Shown here: piece by piece, positions 26,586 to 40,605 of the stretch | Layout of the letters: each line of letters begins with the position of its first letter | Position numbering within the stretch: position 1 is the first letter of the stretch | Translations under genes and position numbers: made by a program | From: Halodesulfurarchaeum sp. | Lineage (GTDB): Archaea > Halobacteriota > Halobacteria > Halobacteriales > Halobacteriaceae | Reading direction: 5' to 3' | Length of the DNA: 64,000 nt | NCBI GenBank assembly: GCA_042216015.1 | Contig: JBDGUI010000015.1 | Location: 30,613 to 94,612 of the forward strand | The notes under the pieces: model-generated | Databases searched by the model: none | Told to the model about the DNA's origin: nothing | Seen by the model: the letters and a program-made list of their open reading frames with translations, nothing else

Positions 26586-26669
26586 GCGAGGGTAGCCAAG
26601 CTCGGAAACGGCGGCGGACTCAAGATCCGCTCCTGTAGAGGTCCAAGGGTTCAAATCCCTTCCCTCGCA
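26586..26669 (+). tRNA. tRNA-Leu(CAA)
   Basis: Acceptor stem GCGAGGG/CCCTCGC, anticodon arm GCGGA-CTCAAGA-TCCGC, long variable arm, GGTTCAAATCC T-loop; CCA not encoded. Confidence 0.97.
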
Positions 26670-26873
26670 CTGCAAAGTGCAGAAGACCCGGAGCGGTCTT
26701 CCCTCGCAAACCTTCTCGGGAAACAAAATCGGACAACGACTATTGACGATCATATCTATTTCCCTTCCCTCGTGCTCGCGAGCACCCCGAGCGAGCGCCT
26801 GGAAGACGAACGGAGTGAGTCTTCCAACGGCACTGCAAAGTGCAGAAGACCCGGAGCGGTCTTCCCTCGCAAA
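26667..26873 (+). repeat. 44-bp direct repeat (x2) made of two hairpins, downstream of tRNA-Leu
   Basis: GCACTGCAAAGTGCAGAAGACCCGGAGCGGTCTTCCCTCGCAAA at 26667-26710 and 26830-26873. Confidence 0.9.
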
Positions 26874-37610: not shown

Positions 37611-37694
37611 ATGGAGTGGTTCGTGTCCGGAGACCAAAGACCCCATGGTGGGAAGCGGGCCAACCCTTTTGCCCCGTCGGGAAAAGCGGTGTGT

Positions 37695-38621
37695 ATGCCA
37701 GTCAGACCGGCAACCTTCTCGATCGTGGCACGGAATCCCGGGCAGGAGGCCATCGGCGTGGCCGTGCAGTCGAAGTTCGTGAGCGTCGGGTCGGTCGTTC
37801 CCTTTGCCGCGGCCGACGCCGGTGCGATCGCCACCCAGAGCTACGCGAACGTGGCCTACGGACCCGATGGCCTGGAACGGCTTCGAGACGGGGCCGACGC
37901 CGAAACGGTGATCGAGGACCTGACCGCTGCTGACGAGGAGGCCGAAACGAGGCAGGTCGGCGTCGTCGACGCGGACGGGTCCGTCGCGGCCTTCACCGGC
38001 GAGGAGTGTCTCGAGTACGCCGGCGACCGACAGGGCGAGCAGTACACCGTCCAGGGCAACATCCTCGAAGGAGCGGCGACCCTCGACGCGATGGCCGAGG
38101 CCTACGAGACGACCGGTGGGGGACTTCCCGAGCGCCTGCTCGCGGCGCTCAAGGCCGGGAACGAGGCGGGCGGGGACCGACGCGGCGAGCAGTCAGCCGC
38201 GATGTACGTCGTCAAGCCCGAGGGGGGCTACGACGGGCGGAACGACCGCTGGATCGACGTCCGGGTGGACGACCACGAGTCCCCGATCGAGGAACTCGAG
38301 CGGGTCTTCAGGATCTACGACGTGACCCTCCTGGAACGCGAGACCCCCGAGGAGCTGCGGGAACTGTCGGGCCCGACCGCGGCGGCGGTCCTCGAAACCC
38401 TCGCCGAACTGGGCCAGTACGACGGGACGCCCTCGGAGAGCGTCGGGGAGAAAGAGCGTGAGGCCCTCGAGGCGTTTCGCGGGGTGAACAACTTCGAGAA
38501 CCACTCCCTGGCCGTGATCGAGGACGCCATCGCCCGGGGGTGGGACGAGGCCGAGGGAACCGGAGAGACGAGGCTCGTGAACGCCATCTGGCGGGGGCTC
38601 TCGCGACTCGACCGGGCCTGA
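37695..38621 (+). CDS. DUF1028 (Ntn-hydrolase-like) protein
   Basis: TFSIVAR, GVAVQSKF, GAIATQ, QGNIL, GGDRRGEQSAA, RVDDH. Confidence 0.9.
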   Translation: MPVRPATFSIVARNPGQEAIGVAVQSKFVSVGSVVPFAAADAGAIATQSYANVAYGPDGLERLRDGADAETVIEDLTAADEEAETRQVGVVDADGSVAAFTGEECLEYAGDRQGEQYTVQGNILEGAATLDAMAEAYETTGGGLPERLLAALKAGNEAGGDRRGEQSAAMYVVKPEGGYDGRNDRWIDVRVDDHESPIEELERVFRIYDVTLLERETPEELRELSGPTAAAVLETLAELGQYDGTPSESVGEKEREALEAFRGVNNFENHSLAVIEDAIARGWDEAEGTGETRLVNAIWRGLSRLDRA

Positions 38622-38727
38622 TCGGATCGGTCCCGGAGGTGGCTGCCGGAAATCGGACAACGATCGACGTGCCGCAGGAAGTGTTGAGGGTGACGGTAGA
38701 TTTAAGCCGACGCGTCCGTTGGGTTTT

Positions 38728-38814
38728 GATGACGCTTCGCTTTGGAGGGCCGAAGCGTCAGCGGGGACCAACTCAGGGCGGCAGCGGGATCGGGTTCCGA
38801 TCCCGCTTCCTTTT
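38728..38814 (+). ncRNA. Candidate intergenic sRNA (two hairpins, TATA box upstream, U-tract)
   Basis: TTTAAG at 38701; 10-bp stem 38730-39/38751-60; 11-bp stem 38783-93/38797-807; TTTT at 38811. Confidence 0.65.
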
Positions 38815-39076
38815 ACAAACGATTCCGGAGAGGCTTTGTCATCGGGACGGTCAGTCCCCGAATTCGAAATACGCCGACAGTCCGAACGATTCACTGGCCG
38901 TCTGGACACCCTCCCGCCCTGGCGAAACCCCGACCGTTCCCGAGAACCCGGCTGTTTGCAGGGATCCATTCCATGACCTGCCTGTTTGAACGGATGACGT
39001 TTCAGATTGCGTTCACACCGATGGAGTCCTCTCGAGGCACTCTCGACCCAATATACTTATGGGCACCTGGAAATTA

Positions 39077-39095
39077 CCCTGTATCAGGGTTCACA
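39077..39095. promoter_or_regulatory. Putative operator: TGT-N10-ACA overlapping a CCCTG-N3-CAGGG palindrome
   Basis: TGT(39080)ATCAGGGTTC ACA(39095), immediately before the ATG of the PadR gene. Confidence 0.5.
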
Positions 39096-39096
39096 C

Positions 39097-39375
39097 ATGT
39101 ATGACCTCACAGGCTTTCAACGGGATCTCCTCTACGTCGTGGCAGGTCTCGATGAGCCACACGGGCTCGCGATCAAGGAAGAACTCGAGAAGTACTACGA
39201 ATCCGAGATCCACCACGGTCGGCTCTACCCCAATCTCGACACGCTCGTGGAGAAGGGACTCATCGACAAGGGCGAGCGCGACCAGCGGACGAACTTCTAC
39301 ACCCTCACGCGACGGGGACGCCGAGAAATCGAGGCCCGACGGGAGTGGGAACTCGACTACGTCGACCTCGACTGA
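39097..39375 (+). CDS. PadR-family transcriptional regulator (RosR-like)
   Basis: LTGFQRDLL...PHGLAIKEEL..YY..EIHHGRLYPNLDTLV...RTN.Y.LT.RG. Confidence 0.9.
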   Translation: MYDLTGFQRDLLYVVAGLDEPHGLAIKEELEKYYESEIHHGRLYPNLDTLVEKGLIDKGERDQRTNFYTLTRRGRREIEARREWELDYVDLD

Positions 39376-39441
39376 CCGATCGGCGTCCAGAATTCACATC
39401 GACTCCCCAGCTTCCGCTATTTCTCGGCCCCCAGGCTCCCG

Positions 39442-40605
39442 CTATTCCTCGTCCCCCGAAACTGCCGGTTCCGATTCGCTCTCCGCTCCGTTGCCCTCCG
39501 AGCGATCGAGTCCCATCGGATCGGGAATTGCCTCCGGCTGGATCGGGGCCCCGGCAATCAGTTCCGGCAGCACCAGCGCGACGAAGTGAACGAGCAACAC
39601 CAGCAGCATCGGGCCGAAGAAGAGCCCGTACCAGCCAAAGAGCAACGGCCCGAAGATGTAGGCCAGCATCACCATCCCGAGGTGGAGGTTCCGACCCGAG
39701 ACGTAGGGCCGAAGGATCAGGTCCGGGATGACGTCGACGACGAAAAAGGAGACGACCACGAAGAGCACGGGAAACCAGAGAAGCGACGGGTTCCCGGCCG
39801 ACACGGCAAAGAGATAGATCGACCCGGGAACGTAGACGATCTTGATCCCGATGACCGGAATGAGGCTCGCCACGCCCGTGAGCAGGCCCAGGAGAGCAGG
39901 ATAGGGGAGCGAGACGCCGGCGGGAGAGACCAGATTGAGCGCCGAGTAGGCCCCGGCCCCGATGATCGCCGTGATGGCGGCGTTGAGGATGTTCCCGAAG
40001 AAGACGTTCGAGAAGTCCCGGTCCACGCGTGACATGTACTCCTCCATGACCCCCTCGGAGTCGGAGAAGCGGCGGCGCCACCAGCTCGCGAGTCGGTGGT
40101 CGTCCCGGAGCAGGTAGAAGGCGATCACGACGACGACGAACAGGTGCAGTGCCCCGAGCCCGAAAAAGCCCAGGTAGGTGCTTGCCTCCCGGAGAACCGT
40201 CTGTATCGCCTCCAGGGTGCTGGGACCCGAAATGAGCGAGAGCGGATCGGTGAATACTGCCGAGATGTCGAAGTAGGGGGCAAGGAGCGTCTCGAGGGGC
40301 TGGAAACCCGTTCCCCGCGCATCGAGGAACTTGTTCAGCTCCTGCAGGGCGATGGCGATCGTGTAGAACACGAGCATGATCGCCGGCAACACGAGGGCCA
40401 CGAGTGAGGTCCCCGCGGCGATCGACGGGGTGTGGATGACCCGTTTCACCCGCCGATAGATCGGTCGTGTGGCATAATAGACGAAGATCCCGAACACGAA
40501 GGTGCCAAGAAACGAGTAGAGGAGAAAAAGCACGAGCGCGCCGAGCGCGAACGCGATCGCCCACCAGCCGAGCCGATCGCGGTCGAGCCGTCCAATCCTT
40601 TCCAT
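39442..40605 (-). CDS. AI-2E family transporter
   Basis: YYATRP, FYLLRD, SLIPVIG, LRPYVSG, GLFFGP. Confidence 0.88.
   Translation of the reverse strand: MERIGRLDRDRLGWWAIAFALGALVLFLLYSFLGTFVFGIFVYYATRPIYRRVKRVIHTPSIAAGTSLVALVLPAIMLVFYTIAIALQELNKFLDARGTGFQPLETLLAPYFDISAVFTDPLSLISGPSTLEAIQTVLREASTYLGFFGLGALHLFVVVVIAFYLLRDDHRLASWWRRRFSDSEGVMEEYMSRVDRDFSNVFFGNILNAAITAIIGAGAYSALNLVSPAGVSLPYPALLGLLTGVASLIPVIGIKIVYVPGSIYLFAVSAGNPSLLWFPVLFVVVSFFVVDVIPDLILRPYVSGRNLHLGMVMLAYIFGPLLFGWYGLFFGPMLLVLLVHFVALVLPELIAGAPIQPEAIPDPMGLDRSEGNGAESESEPAVSGDEE

Follow-up and report, generated by a model that had tools for sequence, protein, structure and literature searches.

Two small RNAs (sRNAs) of Haloferax volcanii are the closest described relatives of the element analysed here. 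Hts10 (HVO_2213s) is flanked by HVO_2213 and the transducer gene HVO_2214, gives reads under all six conditions, and is seen on northern blots as a band of ~110 nt (standard conditions, stationary phase; PMC3495736, including its Suppl. Table 1). Homologues of hts10 have been reported in 18 other haloarchaeal genomes, in an account in which 22 of 27 H. volcanii sRNA genes are without a homologue elsewhere (PMC3956466). The other, HVO_2868s, is known from its mapped start and 3′ end; our literature searches found no functional paper on it and none on a linkage with PadR genes or on class-wide distribution, and a full-text search with a 26-nt core string of the family returned no paper. The element lies in a 64,000-nt stretch of Halodesulfurarchaeum sp. 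DNA (contig JBDGUI010000015.1, positions 30,613 to 94,612, hereafter the window), on the plus strand of a 475-bp gap in high-GC haloarchaeal DNA between the stop codon of a DUF1028/PG_binding_2 gene at 38621 and the ATG of a PadR-family gene at 39097. With a probability of roughly 0.8, we read positions 38731 to ~38813 as an independently transcribed, abundant sRNA, orthologous to Hts10 and HVO_2868s, whose frozen 5′ domain would act in trans.

By sequence homology, the window RNA is an orthologue of both H. volcanii RNAs. The primer hts10IP1 and the northern probe hts10#1 (both as reverse complements), together with the 5′ end of the IntaRNA input given in PMC3495736, match the second copies of the element in Haloferax loci L066, L088 and L142. 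Covariance model R1 aligns these copies with the window RNA (113.8 bits), and the gene context of Hts10 fits, with a convergent methyl-accepting protein gene at 2078874-2081267. Suppl. Table S1 of PMC4983044 places the primary start of HVO_2213s at 2078668 on the plus strand, with a coverage of 611, enrichment in 3/3 replicates (e111) and a TATA box at -28; the row for HVO_2868s, which we located by the promoter string from PadR-linked loci, gives a start at 2705352 (plus strand, coverage 387, e111, TATA box at -28). Both 70-nt upstream strings printed there end in ...GTG, immediately 5′ of ACGCTTCG. In one genome of the class sample described below (G059), the model matches 2078665-2078764 and 2705349-2705446, with a PadR match at 2705814, and the supplement of PMC12482152 lists HVO_RS18570, a ‘PadR family transcriptional regulator’, at 2705814-2706101. 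HVO_2868s lies 462 nt upstream of HVO_RS18570 on the same strand, making it the positional orthologue of the window RNA.

These coordinates also allow both ends of the window RNA to be placed by homology. Because the model matches begin at 2078665 and 2705349 and the published starts are 2078668 and 2705352, transcription begins at model column 4 in both genes; the match in the window begins at 38728, so column 4 corresponds to G38731, the last G of GAUG, directly before ACG. RNA 3′ ends have been mapped at 2078760 and 2705443 (PMC7237163), thus giving HVO_2213s and HVO_2868s lengths of 93 and 92 nt, each ending in the tail after the 3′ hairpin. The window RNA would accordingly run by homology from G38731 to 38811-38814, a length of ~83 nt, shorter through a shorter 3′ hairpin. 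The initial annotation of this locus, made from the letters alone, had proposed an independent sRNA of ~85 nt that starts from an archaeal promoter of its own and ends in a hairpin and U tract. This is supported by the fixed spacing of the TATA box and by the start sites and 3′ ends in H. volcanii; its 5′ end, set at 38729, proves to be 2 nt off the homologous start, while its 3′ end near 38814 fits.

Hts10 and the window RNA share the same sequence over their first ~50 nt, the order of hairpin, single strand, second hairpin and U tail, the promoter geometry, and their status as independent genes. They differ in that Hts10 is the second, PadR-unlinked copy of Haloferacaceae-type genomes beside a transducer gene, with a different sequence in the second hairpin and a length of 93 nt rather than ~83 nt. 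HVO_2868s is the same RNA and, like the window RNA, precedes a PadR-family gene that shares its strand. A further candidate for the PadR-linked copy, H225.2R, an H. volcanii sRNA likewise described as conserved, was rejected, being HVO_1727s2, which adjoins the 16S rRNA gene HVO_1728. In both H. volcanii genes, an older annotated start falls exactly 28 nt after the start from differential RNA-seq, in the 3′ arm of the first hairpin (PMC4983044); this offset could be a shared processing site, a stop of reverse transcription at the hairpin, or an effect that the identical 5′ parts have on mapping. Among the supplement rows listed in PMC12482152 for ribosome-occupied sRNAs, none is an sRNA row at either locus.

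The gene in the window is laid out as follows. The promoter CGGTAGATTTAAG spans 38692-38706 on the plus strand and contains the TATA box TTTAAG (38701-38706), which is centred 27-28 nt before G38731; it is recognised from the sequence, from relatives and from the start sites of the H. volcanii orthologues. The 5′ hairpin, P1 (38730-38760), is built from a perfect 10-bp DNA repeat, with arms TGACGCTTCG (38730-38739) and CGAAGCGTCA (38751-38760) around the 11-nt loop CUUUGGAGGGC (38740-38750), and would hold 9 bp in the RNA if transcription starts at 38731. The hairpins are separated by the 22-nt stretch GCGGGGACCAACTCAGGGCGGC (38761-38782). The 3′ hairpin, P2, contains a perfect 11-bp stem (38783-38793 with 38797-38807) closed by a 3-nt loop, and extends to GG.AGCGGGAUCGG paired with CCGAUCCCGCU.CC over 38780-38810; it is variable in sequence and conserved in structure. 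The TTTT tract at 38811-38814 provides the inferred 3′ end, on the grounds of its sequence, the T-rich tail in relatives, and the 3′ ends mapped in H. volcanii. An inverted-repeat search recovered both repeats, the second extending to 14 nt at 93% with one mismatch (38780-38810). The TATA-like box, both perfect stems, the 22-nt stretch, the T tract and the 475-bp gap are thus all where the initial annotation had put them.

When the plus-strand RNA of 38725-38815 is folded, it reaches -43.9 kcal/mol against -32.1 ± 3.1 for 200 shuffles (z = -3.84; 1/200 as good). The minus strand folds about equally well (z = -5.17), so the fold alone assigns no strand; the strand is given by the T tract together with the TATA box and the published start sites. 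A terminator scan lists 38783-38807 followed by TCCTTTTACA, but with 2 sites found against 1.3 ± 1.2 expected, this is not significant on its own. What proves the element to be more than a chance arrangement is its conservation.

In an alignment of 16 sequences from 7 genera, made with MAFFT and used to build the covariance model, 47 of the 48 invariant columns fall within the first 55 positions. P1 and P2 are constrained in different ways. In P2, 8 of 13 pairs change on both sides, 96.5% of the cells are paired, none of 500 shuffles reaches its covariation score, and controls with a slid register are only 31-56% paired. In P1, 8 of 10 pairs never vary, one varies on one side only (A-U to G-U), and no pair shows a double change. 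Because both strands of P1 are invariant in this way, it is the sequence that is constrained and not only the shape. The P1 loop varies in some copies by a 1-nt indel or by GCUUU>GUCU. Downstream of P1, the run AGCGGGGACC is invariant in the alignment bar one G>A and one C>U, and is kept in all 27 model matches printed. Compensatory stem changes and a conserved linker were both signs that the initial annotation had looked for in relatives, and both are found, the stem changes in P2 (none is doubled in P1) and the linker conservation in the AGCGGGGACC run.

The entire stretch between the hairpins had been described as an unpaired linker, and here only part of the description stands. Predicted folds of the 3′ part of 99 distinct sequences pair CAGGGCGGC with the 3′ tail in many relatives, lengthening P2, so that the dependable single strand is AGCGGGGACC and a few letters more, which in the window are AACU (AAYU in the family) and bring its span to 38760-38773 on the plus strand. 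A pseudoknot between loop and linker (UUGG with CCAA) was considered and rejected, as it would hold at most 4 bp and the loop shows no compensating changes where the linker letters change.

Conservation of the element extends over the class. When the whole gap was compared by BLAST with the window’s own genome and its 40 closest relatives, matches were obtained in 38/41; outside the genus, only 38730-38787 was matched, at 91-98% identity, and the spacer to the PadR gene is not conserved beyond the genus. The compared loci have in common the unchanged core RGTGACGCTTCGCTTTGGAGGGCCGAAGCGTCAGCGGGGACCAAYTCAGGGCGGC, followed by a variable hairpin and a pyrimidine- or T-rich tail, and a TTTAAG/TTTATG/TTTATT box after GGTA-like letters stands at a fixed distance from the core in all 17 of the relatives’ loci that hold upstream DNA. 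In an even sample of the class Halobacteria, the covariance model finds matches in 149/151 genomes and 56/57 genera, the RNA being missing only from both genomes of family f12 (G035 and G057), and most genomes of family f6 carry two copies. Outside the class, 132 genomes of the phylum give one borderline match (E 0.0099, 27.6 bits). In the window’s own assembly the element is single-copy, and this copy is PadR-linked. The exact 26-nt core occurs, among at least 119 matches listed, in Halorubrum, Haloferax, Haloarcula, Natrinema, Natrialba, Haloquadratum, Halobacterium and Halodesulfurarchaeum; these loci, being chosen by the core, are uninformative on its conservation and serve for P2, gene context and organism names only. 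Some copies of the Halorubrum and Halolamina types are divergent throughout the part that follows GGGGACC. A further divergent copy (L119) lies on plasmid unnamed2 of Haloarcula montana (309807-312232), with the P1 loop GUCUUGG, a different linker, and no obvious TATA box at the usual distance.

RNA data from relatives are in keeping with high expression. Two runs (X5 and X6) of one sample hold 1,125 and 1,134 contigs covering 38731-38784, with a summed word depth of up to 1.5-1.6 million, and the loose ends of these contigs continue into both P2 variants of Haloferax-type loci. The library is RNA of type ‘OTHER’, rRNA-depleted and single-end. The depth fits a very abundant RNA, although summed contig depth is a poor measure of abundance. 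The same runs contain back-joints within 38733-38783 (for example 38783 to 38735 or 38740), with 1-5 extra letters and depths of 17-529; at ≤~0.03% of a summed depth above 1.5 million, these are more likely library chimeras than a minor circular or concatenated RNA.

How the RNA might work is suggested by this pattern of constraint. The strong TATA promoter would start transcription at G38731, and P2 with the U tract would end and stabilise the RNA, steps documented in H. volcanii and transferred to the window by homology. The working part would be the 5′ domain, P1 with its UGGAGGGC loop and the single-stranded AGCGGGGACC, which may act in trans by binding a partner as conserved as itself. 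Our tentative choice for this partner, held at a little below even odds, is a protein or a ribonucleoprotein, which we favour over short-seed pairing with mRNAs because both P1 strands and the loop are invariant, where a merely structural stem would covary.

A seed-type sRNA is the competing explanation that survives best, and we consider it possible, if less probable than a protein partner. Here, the invariant AGCGGGGACC, perhaps with the GGAGG-containing loop, would pair with several mRNAs and alter their stability or translation. Its 5′ functional part, terminator hairpin and U tail are laid out like those of seed-type sRNAs of bacteria and archaea, and for Hts10, IntaRNA predicted pairing between this same stretch and mRNAs whose levels go up when the gene is deleted, although these are predictions only (PMC3495736). 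The region that rises in H. volcanii speaks less for such pairing, as HVO_0255-0271, up to 55-fold higher in the hts10 deletion, encodes an integrase and phage-type repressors (PMC3495736), and the reading leaves the lack of covariation on both P1 strands unexplained. The genome likewise offers this reading little. A search with the reverse complement of the linker, allowing up to 3 mismatches, finds only the gene itself, with matches in 33 of 41 genomes and a second site in none, so that no long complement emerges. A duplex scan of the own genome with loop and linker gives 1,943 seed matches, with duplexes of the G-rich run everywhere and only the gene’s own antisense standing out, and the complement of the 9-mer, with 54 occurrences, shows no enrichment over shuffled words (58.8 ± 39.7). 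A role as an rRNA guide was considered and rejected, since the loop and single strand form no duplex with the 16S or 23S rRNA of a genome from the same genus that falls outside the spread obtained with shuffled queries. The start region of the PadR mRNA (-40 to +120) pairs more weakly than random windows do in most loci, with z < -1 in 3/71.

The linked gene downstream codes for a PadR-family regulator. Its 92-aa product (39097-39375, plus strand) matches the Pfam family PadR (PF03551, E 8.8e-17) and, at E 6e-24, chains of hsRosR. Orthologues are found with a best match at E ≤ 7.7e-47 in 148/151 class genomes, with 80-100% identity in the rows listed; set against E 6e-24 to RosR, these strong class-wide matches point to a separate, very conserved paralogue. 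The regulator, which the initial annotation had called RosR-like, is therefore a PadR-family paralogue of RosR, far better conserved than that level of similarity. A PadR gene lies 240-815 nt downstream of the RNA on the same strand in 13/19 loci found by BLAST, 24/30 found by the model and 42/74 found by pattern; these counts are lower bounds, since the flanks reach 1.2-1.5 kb and second copies are included. The shared order is DUF1028/PG_binding_2 gene, sRNA, PadR gene, and an AI-2E-family transporter gene on the opposite strand (window 37686-40605), seen in many loci of the taxonomic family to which the window belongs and in some of other families.

Absence is shared as well. In G035 and G057, the two class genomes lacking the RNA, the PadR-family matches are only 52-53% identical; among other relatives without it, G034 (family f11, 92% complete) has a PadR match of 44% and G026 (family f3, only 61% complete) one of 52%. 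G035, G057 and G034 are small genomes of the order, of ~2 Mb, without the sRNA and without a close PadR orthologue. The lasting linkage and the shared distribution suggest that the RNA and the regulator belong to the same pathway. The regulatory module that had been proposed for the sRNA and this gene is supported by conserved linkage and by shared presence and absence only, and an interaction between the two is putative.

In a stronger form of this idea, the RNA and the PadR protein would be dedicated to each other throughout the Halobacteria: the invariant hairpin and AGCGGGGACC would be bound by PadR, as a decoy or co-regulator, or the RNA would be PadR’s main regulatory output. We regard such a pair as rather improbable, even though it would explain the non-covarying stem, the class-wide linkage and the joint absence. 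If true, it would be a module of an RNA and a transcription factor specific to the Halobacteria.

Whether the RNA could instead be a cis-acting leader or attenuator of the PadR gene, with regulated read-through of P2 from the RNA promoter, can be judged from the same loci. The RNA lies upstream on the same strand in most genomes, and in H. volcanii a further 3′ end at 2705570, 127 nt beyond 2705443 (PMC7237163), and a signal at 2705409-2705600 indicate some read-through. This signal, ‘Unannotated64’ of PMC12482152, begins within the 3′ part of HVO_2868s, and with peroxide its values rise from 82 to 208 transcripts per million (TPM) in RNA-seq and from 679 to 1414 TPM in ribosome profiling (Ribo-seq). 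Taken together, the signal and the second 3′ end make it seem that some transcripts run past P2 toward the PadR gene. Yet the spacer before the ATG, not conserved beyond the genus, ranges in length from 240 to 815 nt, and the PadR gene has a TATA box of its own ~45 nt before its ATG. This promoter, ATATACTTAT at 39051-39060 (plus strand) in the window, is an instance of the (C)GATATAYTTAT box that recurs upstream of PadR genes in relatives, ~40-50 nt before the ATG in most of 78 distinct upstream regions printed, so that the PadR gene forms a separate transcription unit. Second copies of the RNA lie far from any PadR gene, and downstream of these, as of several single copies, the next gene is convergent or unrelated; some genomes of genus g6 have a transporter gene, on the opposite strand, between the RNA and a PadR gene 2.1-2.5 kb away. 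A leader function is thus very unlikely, and for the same reasons (the unrelated or convergent downstream genes and the separate PadR promoter), a riboswitch or other obligate cis leader was rejected as a class.

We give just as little credence to a DNA operator, in which the palindrome TGACGCTTCG-N11-CGAAGCGTCA would be read by a dimeric winged-helix protein such as PadR and the RNA would be a by-product. A stem without covariation is what a protein-read palindrome would be expected to show, and a PadR-family gene does adjoin it. However, the non-palindromic loop and the AGCGGGGACC run are equally invariant, second copies are distant from PadR genes, and the RNA is made at a high level in H. 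volcanii. The palindrome, moreover, occurs once in its own genome, and its half-site, at 27 occurrences, is no commoner than shuffled words (27.9 ± 50). Nearer the PadR gene, window 38985-39017 holds a block conserved in the genus only, GGATGACGTTTCAGATTGCGTTCAC, in which TGAACG...CGTTCA forms an inverted repeat. The block begins with GATGACGTTTC, similar to the GATGACGCTTCG at the 5′ end of the sRNA, and could be a genus-specific operator. Finally, a 3′ untranslated region or terminator of the upstream DUF1028 gene, or a fragment derived from it, is scarcely credible. That gene does share the strand, with its end 109 nt short of P1, and is the upstream neighbour in several relatives too. The element, however, is preceded at a fixed distance by a TATA box of its own, its H. 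volcanii counterparts have primary (enriched) start sites, and its sequence is kept where the upstream gene differs or is divergent.

Several considerations weigh against an abundant RNA that acts in trans through its 5′ domain, and against its tie to PadR. All direct measurements come from H. volcanii or other relatives rather than from the organism of the window, and two RNA-seq contigs from closer relatives (X4 and X10), at a depth of 2.2, also cover the promoter and could therefore be DNA. Every partner test was negative, whether for the linker complement, own-genome duplexes, rRNA, the PadR mRNA or the palindrome, and the preference for a protein over mRNAs is an argument from the conservation pattern. 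One genome that is 99% complete (G013) has the RNA and no close PadR orthologue, and in some genomes the two genes are far apart; the PadR link is a hint drawn from kin that are not independent, and the lineages without both may reflect one event. The hts10 deletion has only mild growth effects, with small changes in growth yield, while a set of transcripts goes up (PMC3495736). As this mutant retains HVO_2868s with the same 5′ domain, the mild phenotype is weak evidence either way.

Known RNA classes were compared with the locus in turn. Rfam 15 at gathering thresholds finds, over the whole window, only a tRNA at 26586 and nothing at the sRNA locus; this tRNA-Leu (CAA; 26586-26670) is the only RNA of the window recognised by both Rfam and ARAGORN. 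A permissive scan of 38400-39300 adds two chance-level matches, the better being COG2827 RNA (RF02938) at 18 bits against a gathering threshold of 49.1 (E 2.2). The Rfam scan that the initial annotation had proposed thus gives no matching family, and its statement that the RNA fits no named family is right as regards Rfam, while the RNA does belong to the published Hts10 family (HVO_2213s, HVO_2868s), with which it shares sequence homology, TATA geometry, and a 3′ hairpin with a U-rich tail. A tRNA or tmRNA is rejected, as ARAGORN and the Rfam tRNA model give nothing at the locus. A C/D box sRNA is rejected on both boxes: TGATGA (38727-38732) is present in only some members of the genus, other relatives having GGTGAC, AGTGAC or CCTGAC, and no CTGA that could serve as a D box occurs anywhere in 38728-38814. 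An H/ACA sRNA is likewise rejected: neither P1 nor P2 has a pseudouridylation pocket interrupting its helix, an ACA following the T tract is confined to this genus, and complementarity to rRNA does not rise above shuffled controls. A protein-coding function is rejected because the invariant core carries a 1-nt indel (CTTTGG/CTTGG) and is frozen at all three codon positions.

For this genome, the analysis supports annotating an sRNA gene from 38731 to ~38813 on the plus strand. That such sRNAs exist is already known, since they are published and experimentally mapped in H. volcanii, although the family is absent from Rfam. What is new here is the extent of conservation (a frozen domain of ~40-50 nt in 149/151 genomes), the paralogy of HVO_2213s and HVO_2868s, and the linkage with PadR. 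Most haloarchaeal sRNAs have been reported as species-specific (PMC3956466); the Hts10 family is the opposite, with a 5′ domain frozen class-wide and high expression where it has been measured. It has neither an Rfam model nor an assigned function, and the mild phenotype on record is that of a strain in which one copy was deleted and a second, with the same 5′ domain, was left.

Beyond the haloarchaeal family itself, two general classes of RNA invite comparison. In layout, the window RNA is like the bacterial trans-acting sRNAs of the Hfq type, with a conserved 5′ functional part, a hairpin resembling a Rho-independent terminator, and a U tail. It differs from them in lacking homology and in its invariant, non-covarying stem, which would be unusual among them; Archaea also terminate transcription differently and have Lsm proteins instead of Hfq. 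The likeness to decoys of the 6S and CsrB type is a functional analogy only: the family is abundant, carries an invariant loop and single-stranded motifs, and has no long antisense target, whereas it shares no sequence or structural similarity with these RNAs and is without their array of repeated motifs.

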